DNA of 44,025 nt from a virus. Taxonomy: Duplodnaviria > Heunggongvirae > Uroviricota > Caudoviricetes. Under the pieces are notes generated by a model that ran no database searches, was not told where the DNA came from, and saw nothing but the letters and a program-made list of their open reading frames with translations. The position numbers and the translations under genes are program-made. The DNA is taken from IMG/VR virus record IMGVR_UViG_2917408641_000004; one strand, written 5' to 3'. Of this stretch, positions 1,659-14,875 are shown piece by piece (the first letter of the stretch is position 1; every line of letters starts with the position of its first letter).

Positions 1659-4130
1659 TTAAGAATCAGCCTGACTCGGGATCAGTTTTTGCCAGATAAC
1701 TGAAACGTATTTTGCCTGGTAACGGGCGTCATCAAGTGCATTATGGCGCTCACCTTCGAATGGAATAGCCGTTCTGGCATCGAAGTCTATGGCTTTCCCC
1801 AGCTCAACGATTGTGCGTACATCGCGATCGTTGTAGTAACGCCACGGGCAGGGGATCCCCTGCCGTTCGTATGAACGGCGCAAAATCGTGTTGTCGAAGT
1901 TGGCTCCATTTCCCCAGACCTGAACAAAAAATTCACCGGAGTTTTCGTCGATAAATTCCCGCAATTGTAACAGTGCATCATCTAACGGGATTTCATCGGT
2001 CATAATGGCAGATTGCGCTTCGCGTGATTGCTTAAGCCACCATTTAATGGTGTCCCGATCAATGACTCCGCCAGCAGTTTCCAGATCGATAGTCTTACTA
2101 AATTCGGGTCCCATATCTCCGGTTTGCGGATCGAAAAATATTGCACCTATTGAGATGATCGGGGCATCAGGATTTTTTCCCATGGTTTCAAGGTCGATCA
2201 TTAGATGGTCACACGTCCTGCTGGTGGATGTGATTTCGTGATGACCGTTCACCTTAATTGAGTGATCTGCCGTCTCGCCAGTTTCATTATCGCTATTGTG
2301 ATGCTGATTGCCGCCAGTGTTCTCCTTGTGTGGATGTTCAGCGCCTTCCATTTCCTCCGGATCATCTTCCTGAACTTCAACCTGATACTCTTCATCGAAT
2401 GTTTCTTGGTATGTTGCGTCGCCCATCACCGCGCCACAATCAGGGCAGTTGCCGCCGCCGGTCTGACCGCAGGCGGTGCAGACTTTTTCCACTTCCTGTT
2501 GCGCCACTGGTTCAGGCTGTTTCGTTTCTGGCTCGTTTTGTAACGCATTTGGGCTGTTTTGTTCCGCTTTTTGGTAGTTCCGTTCCGATTCATGCTGGTT
2601 CTGGTTCACAGAATCGCGGGTCTGGATCCCCTTAACCCATTTCGGATCATTCGGGTCACTAATCCCTTCAACAAATTCACCACGTGATGCAGCAAGCAAC
2701 TTATCGGCGTCAGGCTGGCTGATATTGGCTGCCTGCATAATTTTGTTTACTTCGTCAGCGGTAACTTTTATCGGCTCTGGTTGTTCTGAATCTTCAGCGG
2801 TATCTACATTTTGCGGTAAGCCCGTGTATGTGCCATTTTTTCGGGCAAAATATTCTTCTTTTGTGATTTCAGTGGCGCCAGCAGCCAGTGCCTTATCCAG
2901 ACCAGAAAGTTTGTTTGCGCGACCGTATTTTTCTCCGTCCTTATCTGCGAAGAGGAAATAGAACGGCCCCTCACGCTCTACAGATGGTTCAGCTTCCGGC
3001 GCGGTTTCATTTTTTGGGATATCAGATACCTCAGTTTCCACTGCATCAGTTTGTGTTTCTGATGACTGGAGAACATCAACAGTGCCTAGGTCTGTTTCTT
3101 CATTCTCAAACACGCCCTTTGTCGTCAGGTATTCGCAGATATATTTGTTCAGTGCTACGGGATCTTTGTGAATGTCGATCGGACGCTCACGGACAAGGCC
3201 AAAAATAGTTTGGCGGTCGTAGCGAAGGGCATCAGGCTGTTTGCGCATTGATGCCGAGATACGCTTCCAGTCTTCGCGGTCGTTGTCGATAACTTCTTTT
3301 TTTGCCCAGCGATGGATGCTGCCGTCAATGTTTCCGGCATCCACATCACCAGGCCAGAGAGCGTAGGCCAGTTCGTCATCCAGTGTTTTCCATGTCTGCT
3401 TGTATTCGCGATGAATGGCAGCAATGACCGGGCTGATTTTTCCTGTTGAATTTTCAGTGTACTGTTGATTGGCTCTGGCGCGGGCGAGATCAACAACAGA
3501 CGTGTATTTTCCGGTTTCCTTGCGTTCACCTTCGCGACGTTTTTTCCAGATGCGCATCTCTGCCTGAATTTCGGGCCATTTAGCACCAGGAATACATTTA
3601 TGCTTAACCCACCCAATGGCGTGCAACTTAAGCTCCGGATACATGGCGTTAACTTCTGGCATTTTCATCAACGCTTCAACGATATGTCCGTCGAATGTTG
3701 CCATGTCTTCCTGCAACAATTCCTGTGCGCTAATAACCATATCAACGGTGATGTTTTCACATGTGTCGAACTTAACCATGACAGCGTTCTGTACTTCAGG
3801 GGCCAGCTTGTCAAAAGTGACGTTCATCGGATCGGATTCAGTCTCAACCGGGACAAAAGAAGCAGACTCCTCATCCCAGCGGTTTTCCTGCATATATTCA
3901 GCATCCCATGAATCGAGGGCAGGGCGGGGTATGCCAGGTTTATCCTCGCAGACAATAAATTTATAAGCGCAGTCCTGAGCAGCCGGATAATGTTCCAGGA
4001 ACTGCCAGTGAAATTTTGCTCGAGCACGGCGTTCGTCGCCAGCTTCAATGGCTGTGGCTACAGCCACAGCGCCTTCTTCCCTTGTTGCCAGTTCGTCAGG
4101 AATAGCGGCGCAAATAAAGACTTTACTCAT
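1659..4130 (-). CDS. Large phage exonuclease with C-terminal DEDDh 3'-5' exonuclease domain
   Basis: 823-aa ORF; C-terminal ~190 aa carry Exo I/II/III-like motifs (MIDLETMG, WGNGANFD, HNALDDARY); central Cys4 cluster CTACGQ..CPDCG; occupies the recombination-gene position. Confidence 0.75.
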   Translation of the reverse strand: MSKVFICAAIPDELATREEGAVAVATAIEAGDERRARAKFHWQFLEHYPAAQDCAYKFIVCEDKPGIPRPALDSWDAEYMQENRWDEESASFVPVETESDPMNVTFDKLAPEVQNAVMVKFDTCENITVDMVISAQELLQEDMATFDGHIVEALMKMPEVNAMYPELKLHAIGWVKHKCIPGAKWPEIQAEMRIWKKRREGERKETGKYTSVVDLARARANQQYTENSTGKISPVIAAIHREYKQTWKTLDDELAYALWPGDVDAGNIDGSIHRWAKKEVIDNDREDWKRISASMRKQPDALRYDRQTIFGLVRERPIDIHKDPVALNKYICEYLTTKGVFENEETDLGTVDVLQSSETQTDAVETEVSDIPKNETAPEAEPSVEREGPFYFLFADKDGEKYGRANKLSGLDKALAAGATEITKEEYFARKNGTYTGLPQNVDTAEDSEQPEPIKVTADEVNKIMQAANISQPDADKLLAASRGEFVEGISDPNDPKWVKGIQTRDSVNQNQHESERNYQKAEQNSPNALQNEPETKQPEPVAQQEVEKVCTACGQTGGGNCPDCGAVMGDATYQETFDEEYQVEVQEDDPEEMEGAEHPHKENTGGNQHHNSDNETGETADHSIKVNGHHEITSTSRTCDHLMIDLETMGKNPDAPIISIGAIFFDPQTGDMGPEFSKTIDLETAGGVIDRDTIKWWLKQSREAQSAIMTDEIPLDDALLQLREFIDENSGEFFVQVWGNGANFDNTILRRSYERQGIPCPWRYYNDRDVRTIVELGKAIDFDARTAIPFEGERHNALDDARYQAKYVSVIWQKLIPSQADS

Positions 4131-4223: not shown

Positions 4224-4415
4224 TTAAAGACCTGCCGGGATTTCGATATTATCCAGGTGAATAACTTTATCGACCGGGTAACAGTTACCGGGAATTTTCT
4301 GTTCGGTTGCTGCAGTCATACACTCCTGCATTGTCCTGTGAACACTGACTGCAATATCAACTGGCTCTCCGGAAACAAGAAAAACTGTCAGAACAAGCGC
4401 AAATGCTGAATTCAT
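4224..4415 (-). CDS. Small hypothetical protein with N-terminal signal peptide
   Basis: 63 aa from ATG at 4415 (SD AAGGA 8 nt upstream); hydrophobic N-terminus MNSAFALVLTVFLVSG; ATGA overlap with upstream gene suggests translational coupling. Confidence 0.5.
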   Translation of the reverse strand: MNSAFALVLTVFLVSGEPVDIAVSVHRTMQECMTAATEQKIPGNCYPVDKVIHLDNIEIPAGL

Positions 4416-4600
4416 TGTGCACATCCTTTTGGCATCAGACGTAAACGAGCCAGCATTGAAACAATGCATATTTTATTTAATAGCTCCCGTTCTTGTTTTC
4501 TCTTGTTAATGGCATCTTCAGTAAATACAGGGTTACTGATAGTGACACCAATTTCAAAACAACCTTCAGACGTATTAACGTTTGGTAATAACGTTTTCAT
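4412..4600 (-). CDS. Small hypothetical early protein
   Basis: 62 aa from ATG at 4600 with SD GAGGA 7 nt upstream; stop overlaps start of next gene (ATGA). Confidence 0.5.
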   Translation of the reverse strand: MKTLLPNVNTSEGCFEIGVTISNPVFTEDAINKRKQERELLNKICIVSMLARLRLMPKGCAQ

Positions 4601-5102
4601 TATCGCGTCCTCAACAATGAATTTTGTGATGCAGTGCCTGGTGCCTCCAGGTGACGTTAACCAGTTAACAATTAACGCCGGATACAGAGAATCCACCCAT
4701 AACACTGTTTTTGGTTTTAACTGTTCCGCGTGCGCTTAGCCGCATTCACCGCATCACAAAATTCACTTTAAAAACGGCGGCAGAGCAGTCACGGAGTAAA
4801 ACTGATACCGCCAAACGTCACCAGAAAATTGATAACAGAGGGCGTTGCAGCGGGGTTGTCACTTAAGCGTATGGTCAACCTGACAACTCGGTGTCCTCAA
4901 CGGGGAAGGAATAACCCCGCCATACTTACCGCCGCGCCATTTCGCGGGTTGCCACAACCGGAAGCGCACGGTCGAATTAAATTTAACGACACCGTACAGT
5001 GAGACGAACTTCGCCGTGCGCTTTCGTGTTGTGTGCCTGCTTTTAACCACGTCAGGCGAGGTGGTATCCTTCTTATCCCGAATAACCAAGAAGGAAATCT
5101 AT

Positions 5103-5966: not shown

Positions 5967-6374
5967 TTATCTTTTATTTGTCCGCTGACGGGCTTTTAGT
6001 AATTCTTCAAAGAGTTTATTGAAGTTTTTTACTCGAGCTCGCATTTCGGCGAGCTGGGTATCCTGTTCTGATTCTGGCAGTGCATTAAACAGCTCAAGGA
6101 GCTCTAGTTCTTTGGGAGATAAGGCAACTGGCTTCTCAACAGGTGGTGTTGGTTGCTTGTCTTCATCGCCAAATAGAATCCATGTTGGTGAGCATTGCAA
6201 TACTTTGCTGAGGGCAAAAAGGTTCTTCCCTGTAGGTTCACTATCATCCCGTTCCCATTGTGATACAGACACATGGGAGATTTTCAGGGCTTTAGCAAGA
6301 GACCTTTGGGTGTGTTTGAGGTTTTTCCGACGATACCTAATGCGTTCGCCGATAGTTAAATTTTTTGTATCCAT
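5967..6374 (-). CDS. Prophage repressor, HTH XRE family (RacR/CI-like, no S24 peptidase domain)
   Basis: 135 aa; N-terminal helix-turn-helix (QRSLAKALKISHVSVSQWER); divergently arranged with a cro-like gene across an operator-like palindromic intergenic region. Confidence 0.8.
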   Translation of the reverse strand: MDTKNLTIGERIRYRRKNLKHTQRSLAKALKISHVSVSQWERDDSEPTGKNLFALSKVLQCSPTWILFGDEDKQPTPPVEKPVALSPKELELLELFNALPESEQDTQLAEMRARVKNFNKLFEELLKARQRTNKR

Positions 6375-6457
6375 AGTTAGCTAATGCTAAATCGTATTGA
6401 CTATGTTTTTGTTAACATCTATTTTGTTAGTTATAACTAACAATCAAGGTGTTTTAA
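6375..6457. promoter_or_regulatory. Divergent promoter/operator region of the immunity switch
   Basis: 83-bp intergenic region between repressor and cro-like starts; perfect 20-bp palindrome TTGTTAGTTATAACTAACAA at 6424-6443 plus shorter palindromes TTAGCTAA and TGTTAACA; TTGACT -35-like hexamer at 6397. Confidence 0.5.
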
Positions 6458-6688
6458 ATGCTTAAAACTGACGCTCTTTTGTATTTCGGTTCAAAAACAA
6501 AACTTGCACAAGCAGCTGGTATTCGTTTGGCTTCGCTTTATAGCTGGAAAGGGGATTTAGTTCCCGAAGGTCGCGCGATGCGTCTACAGGAGGCATCTGG
6601 CGGGGAGCTTCAGTATGACCCCAAAGTTTATGACGAATATCGTAAGACGAAGCGGGCGGGGCGGTTGAACAATGAAAATCACTCCTGA
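6458..6688 (+). CDS. Cro/YdaS-like HTH regulator
   Basis: 76 aa; SD AAGGTG upstream; HTH-like segment KLAQAAGIRLASLYSW; divergent from repressor as in Rac racR-ydaS. Confidence 0.7.
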   Translation: MLKTDALLYFGSKTKLAQAAGIRLASLYSWKGDLVPEGRAMRLQEASGGELQYDPKVYDEYRKTKRAGRLNNENHS

Positions 6689-7193
6689 ACAGGCTCGTGA
6701 GGCTCTGGATGCCTGGATATGTCGACCAGGAATGACACAGGAGCAGGCGACGATATTAATCACTGAAGCATTCTGGGCTTTGAAAGAGCGCCCGAACATC
6801 GATGTTAAGCGTGTCACAGATGAAGGTGGCGCGGTTGATCAGCGAGCGCTTGGCGTTAATCGAGTGAAGATATTCGAACGCTGGAAGGCTATCGACACCA
6901 GGGATAAGCGTGAAAAGTTCATGGCGCTAGTGCCTGCAATTATGGAGGCTATCCGGATTAATGATTTCAGGTTATATCGTGAAATTAGTGACGGAAAAAG
7001 CATCACGTATATGATCGCCGGGTTAAACAAAGAATATGGCGATGTGGTGGAGTCCGGACTGCTTTTTGCTGATCCTGCCGTAGTGGATCGTGAAACTGAC
7101 GAACTTATAGAAAAAGCAATTGCTTTCAAGCTTGCGTATCGACAGCAATACCAACAAAAAGCTGGATGGAATTATGAGTCTTCTTTTTGCTGA
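6672..7193 (+). CDS. YdaT/CII-like protein
   Basis: 173 aa; start overlaps end of cro-like gene by 17 nt; position and size match the second gene of Rac-type ydaS-ydaT pairs; family assignment by synteny only. Confidence 0.5.
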   Translation: MKITPEQAREALDAWICRPGMTQEQATILITEAFWALKERPNIDVKRVTDEGGAVDQRALGVNRVKIFERWKAIDTRDKREKFMALVPAIMEAIRINDFRLYREISDGKSITYMIAGLNKEYGDVVESGLLFADPAVVDRETDELIEKAIAFKLAYRQQYQQKAGWNYESSFC

Positions 7194-8139
7194 ACGCCCA
7201 CTGGTTATAAACACACAGCTTGCGATGAAGATTGGCTTAAACGAGGCCATTGTGTTGCAGCAGTTGCATTACTGGTTGAGAGATACTAATTCCGGTATGG
7301 AATGTGATGGTGTCCGCTGGATTTATAACACAACGGAACAATGGCTGGAACAGTTCCCATTCTGGTCAGAGTCAACGTTAAAGCGCGCGTTTGCAAGTCT
7401 GAAAACGCTGGGGCTTTTGCGTTGCGAAAAGCTCAATAAATCAAAGCGCGACATGACCAATTTCTACACGATCAACTATGGGTGCGAGCTTTTAGATGGT
7501 GGTAAATTGAGCGTATCCATCGGTTCAAAATGCGCTGCTCCATCAGGTCTAAATGATACGATGGAAGAGGTCAAAATGAAACGCTCCATTGGTTCAAAAC
7601 GACCCAATGTCATCGGGTCAAAATGGCCTGATGATCTTACAGAGAATACAACAGAGATTACTACAGAGAATAAAAACACTTTTCGTCCGGAAGCTTCGCA
7701 ACCGGACCCGCAGACGACTGAACAGGATTTTTTAACCCGGAACTCCGACGCGGTTGTGTTTAGTGCGAAAAAACGCCAGTGGGGTAGCAGGGAGGATTTG
7801 GCGTGTGCGCAGTGGATCTGGGGGCGGATCGTGGGTCTCTACGAACAGGCAGCCAGTGATGATGGCGAGATCATGCGACCAAAAGAGCCTAACTGGACTG
7901 CCTGGGCCAATGACGTGCGCACAATGCGGATGCTGGATGGCAGAAGCCACAGACAAATTTGCGAAATGTTTGGTCGGGTTCAGCGAGATCCATTCTGGGT
8001 AAAAAACATCATGAGCCCGTCAAAGCTCCGCGAAAAATGGGACGAACTGGTCATCCGCCTGGGACGTTCACCTGTACAGCGTTGTGTTAATCATATTTCT
8101 GAACCGGATACAGAAATTCCGCCTGGTTTCAGAGGATAA
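7174..8139 (+). CDS. Phage replication initiator (O-like N-terminus, DnaT-like C-terminus)
   Basis: ATG at 7174 (an alternative TTG start at 7120 exists); iteron repeats lie inside the coding region, encoding repeated IGSK peptides; C-terminus ..VNHISEPDTEIPPGFRG matches the C-terminal signature of primosomal protein DnaT. Confidence 0.7.
   Translation: MSLLFAERPLVINTQLAMKIGLNEAIVLQQLHYWLRDTNSGMECDGVRWIYNTTEQWLEQFPFWSESTLKRAFASLKTLGLLRCEKLNKSKRDMTNFYTINYGCELLDGGKLSVSIGSKCAAPSGLNDTMEEVKMKRSIGSKRPNVIGSKWPDDLTENTTEITTENKNTFRPEASQPDPQTTEQDFLTRNSDAVVFSAKKRQWGSREDLACAQWIWGRIVGLYEQAASDDGEIMRPKEPNWTAWANDVRTMRMLDGRSHRQICEMFGRVQRDPFWVKNIMSPSKLREKWDELVIRLGRSPVQRCVNHISEPDTEIPPGFRG
7517..7625. repeat. 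Replication origin iterons (five approx. 23-bp-spaced repeats) followed by A-rich region
   Basis: Repeats CCATCGGTTCAAAATG (7517), CCATCAGGTCTAAATG (7540), GAGGTCAAAATG (7567), CCATTGGTTCAAAACG (7586), TCATCGGGTCAAAATG (7610); followed by ACAGAGA(A/T)TA triplicate in an A-rich stretch to about 7685. Confidence 0.6.
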
Positions 8140-8179
8140 GTGTTGATTTCAGGTCATGAGGTAATTTTAAGGGGGACTT

Positions 8180-8602
8180 GTGGCAAAAGTTTTTACACAA
8201 GAAGAGCGGGAAAAAATTAAAGGGCAGGTGGTGGAACTCGTGCGCCAGAGCGGTCGTGAGACGTTACGGCAACTGGAAGCTAAAACAGGTGCGACTAGAT
8301 ATCTGATGAGCGTTCTTGCCAGAGAGCTGGTAGCCAGTGGCGATGTATACAACTCCGGCTACGGGTTATTCCCGTCTGAACAGGCGCGTAAGGACTGGCA
8401 AAACGCCCGCAAAAAACTCTCGAGGGCAAAGGTGAAGAAACCTGCTGTGGTTGATCCGGACCTTATCTGGTCATTACCTGACGGAGAAATACGCCGCTAC
8501 GACAGTCGTCTAAACATAATCTGTCGCGAGTGCCGGAAGAGCGAAGTTATGCAGCGTGTTCTGACGTTTTATCAGGGGAATTATCGGGAGGTGATGCTGT
8601 GA
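8180..8602 (+). CDS. Hypothetical phage protein
   Basis: 140 aa; GTG start preceded by strong SD AAGGGGG. Confidence 0.5.
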   Translation: MAKVFTQEEREKIKGQVVELVRQSGRETLRQLEAKTGATRYLMSVLARELVASGDVYNSGYGLFPSEQARKDWQNARKKLSRAKVKKPAVVDPDLIWSLPDGEIRRYDSRLNIICRECRKSEVMQRVLTFYQGNYREVML

Positions 8603-8832
8603 GTACATCGGCTACCATTCTCGACATGTGCTGTGGCAGTCGCATGCTCTGGTTCGATAAGAATGACGAATGGTCGATATTTAGCGATATCAGGAAAGAG
8701 GAACATTCGCTATGTGATGGACGTCACCCGATTATTAATCCCGACATTATCGCTGATTTTCGTGCGCTGCCGTGGTTGTCTGCTTTGCATCAAAAGCAGA
8801 CATTACCAGATTTAGACATCTGTTTCCGATAG
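8600..8832 (+). CDS. Small ORF with SAM-methyltransferase motif I-like segment (possible gene fragment)
   Basis: About 77 aa from GTG 8600 (SD GGAGG upstream); segment [13 protein letters not shown] resembles MTase motif I but the protein is far too short to be a complete methyltransferase. Confidence 0.3.
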
Positions 8833-8864
8833 CCCGTTCTGATGCTACACTTTTTGCTATTTTC

Positions 8865-9551
8865 ATGAACCTCATAAACACATTTATGACTGTTGCTGAT
8901 TTCAAACGCCCCAAATTGGAGCTCCCAAACGGGGCAAAAAAACTATTACTGCACTCTTGCTGTGCTCCATGTTCCGGTGAAGTGATGGAGGCGCTTCAGG
9001 CCTCGGGAATCGACTACACCATCTTTTTCTACAACCCGAACATTCATCCTCAGAAAGAGTATTTAATTCGTAAGGATGAGAATATTCGCTTTGCTAAACA
9101 ACACGGCGTGCCATTTATTGATGCTGATTACGACACAGACAACTGGTTTGAGCGAGCCAAAGGAATGGAATGGGAGCCTGAACGAGGGATCCGTTGTACC
9201 ATGTGTTTTGACATGCGTTTTGAGCGGACTGCACTGTATGCCGCTGAAAATGGTTTCAGTGTGATCAGTAGCTCACTGGGCATTTCACGCTGGAAAAATA
9301 TGCAGCAGGTTAACGACTGTGGACGGCGAGCCGTCGCGCATTATCCGGGCATGGTGTACTGGGATTATAACTGGCGAAAACAGGGCGGCTCTTCCCGCAT
9401 GATTGAAATCAGCAAGCGCGAACAATTCTATCAGCAGGAATATTGTGGCTGCGTGTATTCACTGCGCGATACCAATCTACACCGCAAATCTCAGGGACGC
9501 CCTCTAATCAAAATTGGTCAACTGCACTACGGTAAAGAAGGACAGGAATGA
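8865..9551 (+). CDS. queH: Epoxyqueuosine reductase QueH family protein (DUF208)
   Basis: Cysteine motifs [19 protein letters not shown] and QEYCGCVYS characteristic of QueH; ATG at 8865 chosen because the upstream in-frame extension from 8772 is non-conserved. Confidence 0.75.
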
Positions 9552-9672: not shown

Positions 9673-10163
9673 GAAATTAGAGGAAATCTTGCAGCCATGA
9701 TATGGCTTAAAATAACGTTTGATTATTTTACCTGCTGTTTGTCCCTGGTTTAAAGTCGGTTGTCTGATTTGATTACGCGCAACTGACGCTTACGTATTGA
9801 AGTAACGAGCACGAAGACACATATTTATCAGTGCCTGTATACGTCAAGAGCAGGAGATTTATGTGCTGGTTCTCAAATGCACGCTGGCTATTGTGGCTGT
9901 AATGGCAATTTATTGTCTTGTTATTGTTCTTATGGATCACCTTTCTGATTGATTTCATATTGGCGAGGTAACGGTAGTTAAGTAGAATGGCTGCGGGTGC
10001 TTGAGGCTATCTGCCTCGGGCATGAACACCAACGGCAGATAGAGAAAAGCCCCAGTTAACATTACGCGTCCTGCAAGACGCTTAACATTAATCTGAGGCC
10101 AATTTCATGCTAGACACATGTAGGTTAGCCTCTTACGTGCCGAAAGGCAAGGAGAAGCAGGCT

Positions 10164-10319
10164 ATGAAGCAGCAAAAGGCGATGTTAATCGCCCTGATCG
10201 TCATCTGTTTAACCGTCATAGTGACGGCACTGGTAACGAGGAAAGACCTCTGCGAGGTACGAATCCGAACCGGCCAGACGGAGGTCGCTGTCTTCACAGC
10301 TTACGAACCTGAGGAGTAA
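10164..10319 (+). CDS. hokD: Hok/Gef family type I toxin (HokD/RelF-like)
   Basis: 51-aa product MKQQKAMLIALIVICLTVIVTALVTRKDLCEVRIRTGQTEVAVFTAYEPEE: single TM helix plus conserved Hok C-terminus; SD AAGGAG upstream; 3' hairpins and terminator downstream as in hok mRNAs. Confidence 0.85.
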   Translation: MKQQKAMLIALIVICLTVIVTALVTRKDLCEVRIRTGQTEVAVFTAYEPEE

Positions 10320-11133: not shown

Positions 11134-12559
11134 TAATGCCAGTCAGTTAAGCAACTGACTGGCTCTTTTTCGGGGCTGTGGGGTATTTCCAGGGCCTCTC
11201 CTTTACCACTCTCGGGAAGGCCCTTTCCCTTCTTGTCGGTAATTTCACAAGTTGTCCCATACTTGCAAGATCGCGCATCAGCTCCGGTATACGTCCCGGT
11301 GAAGCGCCCTGCAATGTCATCAGCATTCTCATCACCATTCCGCATGATTCTGAGAAACTCAGTTGATTCGGCCAGTAACCTTTCAGATGTTCTGCCATTT
11401 TAATCATCTGATATCTCACCAGATTATAAGCCAGTAAGACACCCCACAGCTCTTGCTCCACAAGCTCCGGCTTTTTACTTCTCAGCGTCAGCCTGCTCAG
11501 TTGCATCGTCTGTTTTATCTCCCTGTATCCCAGTTCGATTTCCCAGCGATGACTGTACAGATCCGCCATTTCTCCTCCGGGGAAGCGCATGGCGTCCGTC
11601 ATCGACGTCAGCAGATGGCAGACTTTTCCTTTGCGCGTCACGGTCAGCAGGCGGGCTGTCACCTCATTTCCCAGCCCCGGCCACTTTTTTCGTGCCTGCG
11701 GGCTGGTTTTCAGCTTCACCAGATGATCGCCTTTACCCAGTTTTCTGATCTCTTCATATTGCGCTCCCTTTCTGAGAGGGATCATCCAGTGGCGGTGTTC
11801 TCCCGCCTGGCTCCAGGCATTTAACAGTCCCAGTGAGTAATAACCTTTATCCATTAACGTCAGGGTGTTATCGCCGGTTTGTTCTATAAGTTGCTCAGCA
11901 AGCTCATTTTCGCTGTTCTTCATCGTGCCGAAGGCTGCAGCCGTCAGCAGATGGCTGGTCAGTTCCATCTGGCAGACCATTTTGACCTGCGGGTAGAGCG
12001 CCGGGTTCCCGGCATGTGTCTGGCGGGGGAAGGCTGCATCGTTCTCTGGTGTATCCGGTGTGCGCCAGAACACACCATCGATGGCCAGCAGGGTCAGGCC
12101 GCACCAGTGCGGATGCGGCGTGGCGTTATGCCAGAGCTGCGCTGTTTTCGTGAACACGCGGCGGACAGCCTCACTTCCCAGACGCTGGCGGGCCTGAATA
12201 ACGGCACTGGGGGCAACGAAGGGGCGATTGCCCGGCAGCATGATGTCCAGGCGATTCACAATCTGGTGAAGAGGTTCTTTACGCTCAAGCGCCATGCCAA
12301 CAATACACCAGACCATCATTTCGAGGGGAAGACGGCGCTTGCGTAGCGTTACAGTACCTGATTCGGCAAGGCAACGAGAGATGAGTTCGGGGTCGAGGTA
12401 ATCCCCCAGAGAAGTCAGTGGGTTACGCAGAGAATCGTAACGGGATACCAAATCAAGGGCCTGTCCAATGAGCATAAAAAAATCCGGAAACGAGTGAGCG
12501 TTTCCGGATTCTTACACAGCCACTGGATCGGTCAACTGATCCTTAACTGATCGGCATTA
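11134..12559 (-). mobile_element. IS4, complete copy
   Basis: 1426 bp, matching the known IS4 length; terminal inverted repeats TAATGCC(A/G)..TCAGTTAAG; single 442-aa transposase; 12-bp TSD within the expected 11-13 bp range. Confidence 0.9.
11147..12475 (-). CDS. insG: IS4 transposase
   Basis: 442-aa ORF filling the IS4 element; IS4-family DDE transposase. Confidence 0.9.
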
Positions 12560-12571: not shown

Positions 12572-12936
12572 AACTTCCCTTATGAGTTTAAAATCGCCTT
12601 AGTGGAGCAGTCACTGCAGCCCGGAGCCTGTGTGGCGCAGATCGCCCGGGAAAACGGAATCAACGATAACCTGCTCTTCAACTGGCGCCATCAATACCGG
12701 AAAGGTGGCCTGCTGCCTTCCGGAAAAAATATGCCGGCACTGCTTCCCGTGACGTTAACGCCGGAGCCGGATAATAAAATCCCGGCCCCCGCACAGGAAC
12801 CAGAGCAGATAAATACACCGTCCGACAGTCTGTGTTGTGAGCTGGTTCTGCCGGCCGGAACTCTCAGGCTTAAAGGTAAACTGACGCCGGCGTTATTACA
12901 GACACTTATCCGCGAAATAAAAGGGAGCAGCCACTG

Positions 12937-13284
12937 ATGATATCTCTCCCTGCCGGTTCGCGTATCTGGCTGGTTGCAGGTATCACCGATATGCGAAATG
13001 GCTTTAACGGCCTGGCATCAAAAGTTCAGAACGTCCTGAAGGATGACCCGTTCTCCGGACACCTGTTCATCTTCCGCGGACGCCGGGGTGACCAGATAAA
13101 AGTGTTGTGGGCTGACAGTGACGGACTGTGCCTCTTCACCAAACGCCTGGAGCGGGGCCGCTTCGTCTGGCCAGTCACCCGTGACGGCAAGGTGCACCTT
13201 ACTCCGGCTCAGTTATCCATGCTTCCTGAAGGTATCAACTGGAAGCACCCGAAACGAACGGAACGCGCTGGAATCCGCATATAA
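12937..13284 (+). CDS. tnpB: IS66-family TnpB (Orf2)
   Basis: 115 aa; start overlaps tnpA stop (ATGA); typical IS66 Orf2 sequence (..IWLVAGITDMRNGFNGLA..). Confidence 0.85.
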   Translation: MISLPAGSRIWLVAGITDMRNGFNGLASKVQNVLKDDPFSGHLFIFRGRRGDQIKVLWADSDGLCLFTKRLERGRFVWPVTRDGKVHLTPAQLSMLPEGINWKHPKRTERAGIRI

Positions 13285-13303
13285 CCCGTTGTAAAGTGAG
13301 GAT

Positions 13304-14875
13304 ATGGACACCTCACTTGCTCATGAGAACGCCCGCCTGCGGGCACTGTTGCAGACGCAACAGGACACCATCCGCCAGATGGCTGAATACAACCGCCTGC
13401 TCTCACAGCGGGTGGCGGCTTATGCTTCCGAAATCAACCGGCTGAAGGCGCTGGTTGCGAAACTGCAACGTATGCAGTTCGGTAAAAGCTCAGAAAAACT
13501 TCGTGCAAAAACCGAACGGCAGATACAGGAAGCTCAGGAGCGAATCAGCGCACTTCAGGAAGAAATGGCGGAAACGCTGGGTGAGCAATATGACCCGGTA
13601 CTGCCATCCGCCCTGCGCCAGTCTTCAGCCCGTAAACCGTTACCGGCCTCACTTCCCCGTGAAACCCGGGTTATCCGGCCGGAAGAGGAATGCTGTCCTG
13701 CCTGTGGTGGTGAACTCAGTTCTCTGGGATGTGATGTGTCAGAGCAACTGGAGCTTATCAGCAGCGCCTTTAAGGTTATCGAAACACAACGTCCGAAACT
13801 GGCCTGTTGCCGGTGCGACCATATCGTGCAGGCACCAGTACCTTCAAAACCCATTGCACGCAGTTATGCCGGAGCGGGGCTTCTGGCCCATGTTGTCACC
13901 GGGAAATATGCAGACCATCTGCCGTTATACCGCCAGTCAGAAATATACCGTCGTCAGGGAGTGGAGCTGAGCCGTGCCACACTGGGGCGCTGGACCGGTG
14001 CCGTTGCTGAACTGCTGGAGCCGCTGTATGACGTCCTGCGCCAGTATGTGCTGATGCCCGGTAAAGTCCATGCCGATGATATCCCCGTCCCGGTCCAGGA
14101 GCCGGGCAGCGGTAAAACCCGGACAGCCCGGCTGTGGGTCTACGTCCGTGATGACCGCAACGCCGGTTCACAGATGCCCCCGGCGGTCTGGTTCGCGTAC
14201 AGTCCGGACCGGAAAGGTATCCATCCACAAAATCACCTGGCCGGTTACAGCGGTGTGCTTCAGGCCGATGCTTACGGTGGTTACCGGGCGTTATACGAAT
14301 CCGGCAGAATAACGGAAGCCGCGTGTATGGCTCATGCCCGGAGAAAAATCCACGATGTGCATGCAAGAGCGCCCACCGACATCACCACGGAAGCCCTGCA
14401 GCGTATCGGTGAACTGTATGCTATCGAGGCAGAGGTCCGGGGCTGTTCAGCAGAACAGCGTCTGGCGGCAAGAAAAGCCAGAGCCGCGCCACTGATGCAG
14501 TCACTGTATGACTGGATACAGCAACAGATGAAAACACTGTCGCGTCACTCAGATACGGCAAAAGCGTTCGCATACCTGCTGAAACAGTGGGATGCACTGA
14601 ACGTGTACTGCAGTAATGGCTGGGTGGAAATCGACAACAACATCGCAGAGAACGCCTTACGGGGAGTGGCCGTAGGCCGGAAAAACTGGATGTTCGCGGG
14701 TTCCGACAGCGGTGGTGAACATGCGGCGGTGTTGTACTCGCTGATCGGCACATGCCGTCTGAACAATGTGGAGCCAGAAAAGTGGCTGCGTTACGTCATT
14801 GAACATATCCAGGACTGGCCGGCAAACCGGGTACGCGATCTGTTGCCCTGGAAAGTTGATCTGAGCTCTCAGTAA
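13304..14875 (+). CDS. tnpC: IS66-family transposase TnpC
   Basis: 523 aa; N-terminal coiled-coil/leucine zipper, CxxC..CxxC zinc motif (CPACGG..CCRCDH) and DDE-type C-terminal region characteristic of IS66 transposases. Confidence 0.85.

Follow-up and report, generated by a model that had tools for sequence, protein, structure and literature searches.

The virus sequence IMGVR_UViG_2917408641_000004 (44,025 nucleotides, all of it referred to here as the window) is a nearly complete Escherichia coli prophage, lambdoid and with immunity of the Qin/DicA type. We analysed its replication module, a single initiator gene of the lambda O kind (7174-8139) that contains the phage origin, ends in a short peptide (the tail) also found at the C-terminus of the host primosomal protein DnaT, and is not followed by a helicase-loader gene. 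Comparison with related loci revealed an all-or-none association with loader type, in which phage initiators bearing this tail are followed by a DnaC-like loader gene or by no loader gene, and never by a gene resembling lambda P. The parts of the module are listed below, with confidence values (predicted local distance difference test, pLDDT) from an AlphaFold2 model built on 107 sequences.

7174-8139, + strand: replication initiator gene, O-like, with the phage origin inside it (ATG at 7174, 321 residues)
7195-7473, + strand: N-terminal winged helix, presumed iteron binder (residues ~8-100; pLDDT 84-96)
7501-7698, + strand: disordered inter-domain linker (residues ~110-175; pLDDT 35-44), whose coding DNA overlaps the origin
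7514-7630: five iterons, cores at 7518, 7541, 7564, 7587 and 7611 (spacing 23/23/23/24 bp)
7631-7680: A-rich, strand-asymmetric tract, candidate unwinding element (~40% A, ~62% A+T)
7711-8064, + strand: lambda-O-type C-terminal domain, helical (residues ~180-297; pLDDT 90-98)
8074-8136, + strand: DnaT-type C-terminal tail, a predicted flexible docking peptide (residues 301-321, VQRCVNHISEPDTEIPPGFRG; low pLDDT) that matches DnaT residues 159-179
8137-8179: stop codon and short spacer, where relatives have a DnaC-like and a YdaW-like gene

An O-type initiator and the origin within its gene

The ATG at 7174 agrees with the N-termini of homologs and with the annotation of Escherichia phage PhiR42_1, whose 'DNA replication protein O' is 99.1% identical to the window protein. 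The initiator matches PHROG 391, 'replication initiation O-like', over residues 17-321 (E = 3.5e-90); no Pfam family matches it even at E <= 10, Phage_rep_O (PF04492) included, and RefSeq labels it 'phage O protein family' in one genome, other genomes having it as 'hypothetical protein'. The gene is a common, ordinary member of a known family. Of 5426 complete E. coli genomes, 329 have the 2.8-kb segment 5900-8700 at a coverage of 80% or more.

The best Foldseek matches of the N-terminal domain in the PDB are the winged-helix N-domains of staphylococcal plasmid RepA proteins (4pql, 4pt7 and 5kbj; E = 5e-3 to 3e-2), and a search with the full-length fold is swamped by generic winged helices. 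The C-terminal domain is homologous to that of the lambda and 434 O proteins, with a BLASTP match to phage 434 O at E = 1e-26 and 36% identity to the O proteins of lambda and Stx phages over residues 170-294 (tblastn); BLASTP gave no N-terminal similarity to 434 O, and we found no solved structural relative of the C-terminal domain. As in lambda and 434, a two-domain initiator carries iterons and then an A/T-rich tract in its own linker-coding DNA, and its gene lies after genes of the cI/cro/cII type. The initial annotation had described a lambda-O-like initiator with the origin in its own gene, and this is borne out by the PHROG 391 match, the homology to the 434 O C-domain and the iterons in linker DNA. 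Unlike lambda and 434, the window protein has an N-domain of a different winged-helix family with a different iteron sequence and a tail of the DnaT type, not NTDW..G, and its module has no P gene.

Five iterons at a spacing of about 23 bp, followed by an A-rich tract, had also been noted before and are present as described, the tract being modest and less extreme than that of lambda. The iteron consensus is CATCGGTTCAAAATG; four copies match it with at most three mismatches, on one strand and within 108 bp, and nothing else in the 44-kb window does so on either strand. The copy at 7564 retains the core GGTCAAAATG alone. A repeated SIGSK/IGSK peptide in the linker is the product of the iteron DNA. 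The 50-bp A-rich tract contains two 14-bp TACAGAGAATAMAA repeats, 24 bp apart, and by analogy with lambda ori it would serve as the unwinding element. Both iterons and tract fall within the DNA that codes for the disordered linker (residues 110-175). In relatives with other N-domains, different iterons occupy the corresponding position of the gene, and the pairing of initiator and origin is supported because changes of N-domain go with changes of iteron.

DnaA-box matches at the origin are at chance level, with no cluster and none among the iterons, and DnaA-assisted loading was discarded as unsupported. A single iteron-binding initiator that uses the host helicase and loader is a feature shared with 'initiator-solo' phage modules, reportedly treated by Weigel and Seitz (2006), and with the iteron plasmids pSC101, R6K and RK2. 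Unlike the window origin, with its lack of a DnaA-box cluster, such plasmids generally also use DnaA boxes and DnaA, and to our knowledge no DnaT-type tail has been described on the Rep proteins of these three.

The tail and the loader genes that accompany it

The initiator ends in ...QRCVNHISEPDTEIPPGFRG, with 14 of 20 residues identical to the end of E. coli DnaT, at the exact C-terminus of both proteins. Pairwise BLASTP aligns the two only over residues 302-321 (E = 9e-8), the NCBIfam DnaT equivalog matches at profile positions 160-179 of 179 only (E = 0.006), and the DnaT chains 2ru8, 6aep and 9zbt in the PDB match over 21 residues (E = 0.013-0.04). The Pfam DnaT family (PF17948), which represents the 3-helix DNA-binding domain, matches DnaT and not the initiator, and by BLASTP the N-terminal oligomerisation domain and the acidic PriB-binding linker of DnaT are also absent from it; hhalign, run with shallow profiles, gave a probability below 1% for the tail-less C-domain against the DnaT 3-helix domain and against YdaU-type pre-tail domains. 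The DnaT signature of the initial annotation thus stands for the extreme C-terminal 20-21 residues and falls beyond them; homology over the last 90 residues is ruled out, as the BLASTP, Pfam and NCBIfam matches end at 20-21 residues, and on these alignments 'DnaT-like C-terminus' should be worded 'DnaT-type C-terminal tail'. With DnaT the initiator shares its last 20 residues, their pattern of conservation and, as we propose, a role as adaptor to DnaB-DnaC. Unlike DnaT, it would act at a sequence-specific origin and not through PriA/PriB, and it has no dnaC next to it.

The tail motif, RDVN.IS.PD..IP.GFRG, is portable and occurs on at least five kinds of pre-tail segment. Among the 149 listed representatives of the lambda-O C-domain family (50%-identity clusters), 22, with various N-domains, end in [DY]xx[IV]PxGFRG, and further members have recurrent short tails of other kinds. 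When viral contigs were scanned for DNA encoding D-x-x-I-P-x-G-F-R-G-stop, 120 matches were returned, 116 of them at the end of an open reading frame (ORF), mostly of ~260-400 residues; R-D-V-N-x-I-S-x-P-D is common to these terminal matches, though not imposed by the search pattern, and at non-pattern positions the consensus R-D-V-N-x-x-S-E-P is common to DnaT orthologs and phage proteins. Three kinds of segment before the tail were separated by test, namely the lambda-O C-domain, the DnaT 3-helix domain and a YdaU-type segment, and two more (PF09524-like and 'YPxxFEQVW') were told apart by eye only.

Some phage initiators (L161:6958-7773, L193, L181, L101 and L129) carry a true DnaT 3-helix domain and the tail behind unrelated N-domains, with phmmer matches of this domain to DnaT residues 84-159 at 1e-18 to 1e-30. 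The C-terminal half of DnaT is therefore in circulation among phages, which fits a phage origin of dnaT-dnaC. In one protein, P0194 (L088:4001-5044), the tail motif is present twice in tandem (...DYSIPKGFRGHDENEGYRGFGSPQKHVSDDVETEIPHGFRG).

Across phages with differing DnaC-like proteins the core IP.GFRG does not vary, and it is identical in loader-less and loader-encoding phages. The residues P-D-x-x-I-P-x-G-F are kept despite synonymous codon variation, loader-less loci included. In 21 of 24 distinct DnaC-linked tail DNAs (source loci L218-L297 and L097-L216) the last two codons are AGG GGG, which sit 5-10 nt before the ATG of the loader gene and double as a Shine-Dalgarno site; the E. coli dnaT/dnaC junction (L003) reads AGA GGG TAA CG ATG. 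Arg-Gly is kept in loader-less loci through eight different codon pairs (AGA GGA in the window, 8131-8139). As judged from these codons, selection on the tail peptide is real, despite a possible DNA-level part in the linked loci.

Within a sample of 120 pattern matches (rows) from a collection of species genomes, ORF-terminal tails occur in Enterobacterales only, all non-enterobacterial matches being non-terminal and attributable to chance; Enterobacterales are the clade that has DnaC. Every ~179-residue DnaT-type ORF in the sample ends in the tail, and dnaC starts at -4 to +2 nt after nearly all of the dnaT genes, the exceptions mostly having too little downstream sequence. E. coli has dnaT and then dnaC, and in the Rac prophage YdaU, which ends in ...VNTVSLPDSAIPPGFRG, is followed by the DnaC-like YdaV. 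The window initiator shares with YdaU the tail (13 of 19 residues identical) and an early-operon place after genes of the ydaS/ydaT type; it is unlike the Rac module in having no DnaC-like and YdaW-like genes, and unlike YdaU itself, whose N-domain is DUF1376 and whose pre-tail domain differs.

The association between tail and loader was measured from both sides. Phage DnaC-like genes, located without reference to the tail, are preceded by an ORF ending in PD..IP.GF.G in 74 of 79 loci. The DnaT-type tail is found on none of the 76 ORFs upstream of lambda-P-like genes (L418-L497), and 73 of these 76 initiators end in LDxxNTDWxxG[VL]xx, as lambda O does (L002:2030-2929). Starting from the tail, 95 phage loci with enough flanking sequence divide into 53 with a DnaC-like gene at +2 to +6 nt and 42 that are loader-less, with P or DnaB in none. 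A scan of related loci by C-domain alignment had returned near-identical E. coli prophages only, and it was replaced by 50%-identity representatives and by scans that took the tail, DnaC-like genes or P-like genes as their starting point; five of the representatives bear the tail and are all loader-less, three have W-rich tails and are followed by P, and two with other tails precede IstB-like genes.

Variant tails (...QFIPEDF, ...EKPPGFN and ...IPDGFTG; L249, L251, L260, L291, L238, L255 and L226-L231) also occur in a minority of the loci with DnaC-like genes, and W-rich variants such as HWNSxEAWENTL likewise pair with P. The phage DnaC-like proteins are 47-50% identical to E. coli DnaC. DnaC Ala84, altered in dnaC1331, is invariant among six proteins, four of them DnaC-like and from phages and the others E. 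coli DnaC and YdaV, an invariance that carries little weight where 68% of the columns are identical on average.

The simplest reading of these counts is that the extreme C-terminal tail specifies the loader, the NTDW..G type calling for lambda P and the DnaT type for a DnaC-type loader, and the comparison points to the last ~15 residues of lambda O as the likely place where it docks P. We found no description of such a rule in the open-access literature, which is weak evidence of novelty, and the DnaT-type tail with its strict pairing to a DnaC-type loader or none is apparently a previously undescribed variant. A parallel between O-P and dnaT-dnaC was drawn earlier (PMC5509034, Brezellec et al. 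2017, figure 3), in work on DopC of Cellvibrionales/Oceanospirillales, a protein with an O-like N-terminal helix-turn-helix and, by HHpred, a 'DnaT C-terminal motif'. This motif could be the GFRG tail or the DnaT 3-helix domain alone; unlike the window gene, dopC is a domesticated chromosomal gene without iterons or a lambda-O C-domain, and its partner is the lambda-P-like DopE.

In the 44-kb window, no open frame of at least 40 residues has a match at E <= 10 to reference sequences of lambda P, of DnaC/IstB-like proteins or of DnaB, in agreement with the initial annotation, which had found no P/DnaC-type loader gene next to the initiator. The following ORF (8180-8602), raised there as a possible separate loader, is a DUF977 gene; it is ruled out as a hidden loader, since it has no loader-like domain and co-occurs with DnaC-like genes, DUF977 lying after the DnaC-like gene in 25 related loci. 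A hidden helicase or loader beside the loader-less tail-bearing initiators was likewise rejected, their neighbours being Dam and other methyltransferases, ParB-like proteins, DUF968, Rha, RuvC-like proteins and DUF977. At the position of lambda ren, after the initiator or loader, these modules regularly have a winged-helix gene of the DUF1627 (YdaW-like) or DUF977 kind (L096:3753-4313; L086, L087 and L126:7087-7857).

The junction itself can be compared with that of the related locus L126. Window positions 7700-8135 align with L126 5873-6308 (86% identity) and 8177-8505 with L126 7870-8198 (92%), and between the aligned blocks the window has 41 bp whereas L126 has 1561 bp with a DnaC-like and a DUF1627 (YdaW-like) gene. 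Initiators whose C-domain is ~90% identical to that of the window are found both with and without a DnaC-like gene. As these gene orders read, the DnaC-like loader gene is an optional part of such modules.

Candidate partners of the tail

We consider it somewhat probable that the tail docks a DnaC-type loader and that the loader-less phage borrows host DnaB-DnaC instead of using PriA/DnaT. The winged-helix N-domain would bind the five iterons encoded in the linker region of its own gene, and the adjacent A-rich tract would be the likely site of DNA opening. Behind a lambda-O-type C-domain, the lambda O tail ...LDLTNTDWIYGVDL and the P gene would here be replaced by a flexible 20-residue DnaT-type peptide, a portable docking peptide for DnaC-type loaders that may dock the phage DnaC homolog where one is encoded and, with none encoded here, would dock host DnaB6-DnaC6. 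Its direct contact would more likely be DnaC, with DnaB as the alternative. At the phage origin the initiator may thus act as DnaT does at an abandoned fork, making PriA, PriB, DnaT and a phage loader unnecessary. Because DnaT's own tail is present, an initiator that stands in for DnaT as DnaB-DnaC adaptor is simpler than one that recruits DnaT or PriA; that the tail binds physically, which partner it binds and that PriA/DnaT are not needed is what we infer. The dnaT-dnaC operon has long invited the idea of a DnaT-DnaC contact, suspected from the operon (PMC5778457), and none is documented (PMC5778457, PMC11087952, PMC13377028). Tentatively, the tail of DnaT and of the phage initiators could be the missing element that recruits DnaB-DnaC, a portable DnaC-docking peptide.

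Several points weigh against DnaC as the partner. The name of the partner comes from gene neighbourhood, and the loci are not phylogenetically independent, many being near-duplicates. Host range cannot separate the candidate partners, as DnaC, DnaT and PriB are all present in Enterobacterales (the 120-row sample covers DnaT and dnaC only). Two non-enterobacterial initiators that precede IstB-like loaders bear other tails, and the tails of loader-less phages are no closer to DnaT's than are those of DnaC-linked phages. The tail DNA abuts the start codon of the dnaC-like gene, a linkage that inflates the counts and by which both could pass on together as one recombination block; a role as ribosome-binding site could also explain part of the conservation in DnaC-linked loci. 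That PhiR42_1 replicates without the DnaC homolog of another resident prophage is an assumption. In PMC13377028 a possible recruitment of DnaB/DnaC is attributed to the N-domain of DnaT and not to its tail, and residues 154-179 of DnaT have a modest role in cooperative single-stranded DNA binding, the one role linked to them so far, their deletion doubling the apparent dissociation constant for dT30 and lowering cooperativity (PMC4132743).

The tail might instead bind host DnaB, which the DnaC-type loader merely accompanies, and would then be unneeded where P bridges O and DnaB. The invariance of IP.GFRG is expected of a constant host partner, given that the phage DnaC-like proteins differ, and the plasmid initiators R6K pi and pSC101 RepA touch DnaB directly. 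A DnaB contact is nonetheless a less direct account of the strict adjacency and near-exclusive pairing with DnaC-like genes, and we think it unlikely also because it is alleles of dnaC and not of dnaB that bypass or block the DnaT-dependent pathway (PMC11087952, PMC5778457), DnaC1331 blocking that of PriA/PriB/DnaT (PMC11087952).

The initial annotation had proposed recruitment of the host PriA/DnaT restart primosome. On such a model the tail would bind PriA (or PriB) as DnaT does, and PriA/PriB/DnaT would then load DnaB at the opened origin. The tail is indeed DnaT's own, phiX174, ColE1-type plasmids and Mu are precedents for PriA-dependent replication (PMC5778457), and the C-terminal region of DnaT docks PriA via a conserved hydrophobic interface that possibly involves the tail (PMC13377028). 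This published docking needs a fork-induced change in PriA and is aided by PriB on the acidic DnaT linker, however, and the initiator has neither the DnaT linker nor the 3-helix domain; a mimic of the DnaT tail would, moreover, compete with DnaT, not recruit it. The tail sits on initiators that bring a DnaC homolog (74/79) and never occurs with lambda P, a distribution that tracks DnaC-type loader genes and not fork recognition. Primosome recruitment is not the best reading of the module, and we regard it as distinctly unlikely.

That the tail recruits nothing, and serves in single-stranded DNA binding or self-assembly or is kept mainly as the ribosome-binding site of a loader gene with which it travels, would accord with the effect of removing DnaT 154-179 on dT30 binding (PMC4132743) and with the AGG GGG codons of the DnaC-linked tails. 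It is very unlikely in view of the loader-less loci, where Arg-Gly is retained through so many codon pairs and synonymous variation, and of the window itself, where the tail is kept despite a 40-nt spacer and an unrelated next gene; the tail is also present on unrelated domains, once in tandem, and a generic single-stranded DNA-binding tail is not expected to be absent from all 76 P-linked initiators. A decayed module that has lost its loader, and either does not replicate autonomously or relies on another prophage's DnaC homolog or on DUF977 as an unrecognised loader, could be imagined from the relatives with a DnaC-like gene at the exact junction, the IS4 and IS66 insertions in this prophage and the frequency of Rac-type ydaV in E. 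coli strains, but is highly improbable given the same gene order, likewise loader-less, in the deposited complete genome of PhiR42_1, the 42 loader-less loci across several initiator families with five distant representatives, the intact initiator ORF, iterons and tail with purifying selection on them, and the absence of ATPase or P-like features from a DUF977 protein that accompanies DnaC-like genes elsewhere.

The pattern singles out a specific 13-20-residue DnaT peptide as the candidate recruiting element for DnaB-DnaC in replication restart. If docking to DnaC-type loaders is the true role of the tail, it would be the means by which DnaT delivers the helicase-loader complex to the restart site. 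The dnaT-dnaC operon would be a domesticated phage module of initiator tail and loader, the O-type tail an exchangeable code for loader specificity, with GFRG standing for DnaC-type loaders and NTDW..G for lambda P, and loader-less phages DnaT mimics that take host DnaB-DnaC directly, which would account for the working of the widespread 'initiator-only' lambdoid modules where no loader gene is present. The rule would predict which loader, of host or phage, an O-type initiator uses, and it offers a route to re-annotating a very common prophage protein of E. coli, Citrobacter and Salmonella, mostly called 'hypothetical'. The gene is common and belongs to a family already described; what is of value is the rule together with the prediction, both drawn from sequence comparison.

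The prophage around the initiator gene

The remaining features of the window are as follows.

20-1315, - strand: integrase (from the window gene order)
1659-4130, - strand: large exonuclease gene (exodeoxyribonuclease VIII in the PhiR42_1 annotation)
4775-4826, - strand: DicF small RNA (Rfam, 72.5 bits)
5967-6374, - strand: DicA-type repressor, in the immunity and early-regulation block (5967-7193)
6458-6688, + strand: Cro/DicC, in the same block
6672-7193, + strand: cII-like YdaT-family gene, overlapping the initiator start by 20 nt
8180-8602, + strand: DUF977 gene (PHROG 142, 'Ren-like'; Pfam PF06163, E = 4.7e-29)
8772-9551, early region: QueH, epoxyqueuosine reductase (Pfam, E = 2.7e-65)
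9995-10319: hok/sok-type module, the sok antitoxin RNA (Rfam, 115 bits) overlapping a Hok-family ORF (MKQQKAMLIALIVICLTVIV...)
11147-12475, - strand: insertion sequence IS4, interrupting the nin-like region
12602-14875, + strand: IS66-family element, interrupting the nin-like region

An ORF adjoining DicF (4412-4705, - strand) reads as the DicB division inhibitor, as in a dicB operon of the Qin type. Database entries such as P0001 (448 residues) fuse the YdaT-family gene to the initiator and are probably mis-calls or frameshifts. Directly before QueH, the ORF at 8599-8832 is apparently a truncated S-adenosylmethionine-dependent methyltransferase; PhiR42_1 has a methyltransferase gene, and no QueH annotation, in this region. 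A Pfam scan of ten other large ORFs of the window, those at 11-17 kb included, found only insertion-sequence elements, DUF968, antiterminator Q, integrase, exonuclease and DUF1327. DUF968 and antiterminator Q lie downstream of the initiator, after the IS insertions, and the further large ORFs downstream are presumed from their size and position to code for lysis, head and tail functions.

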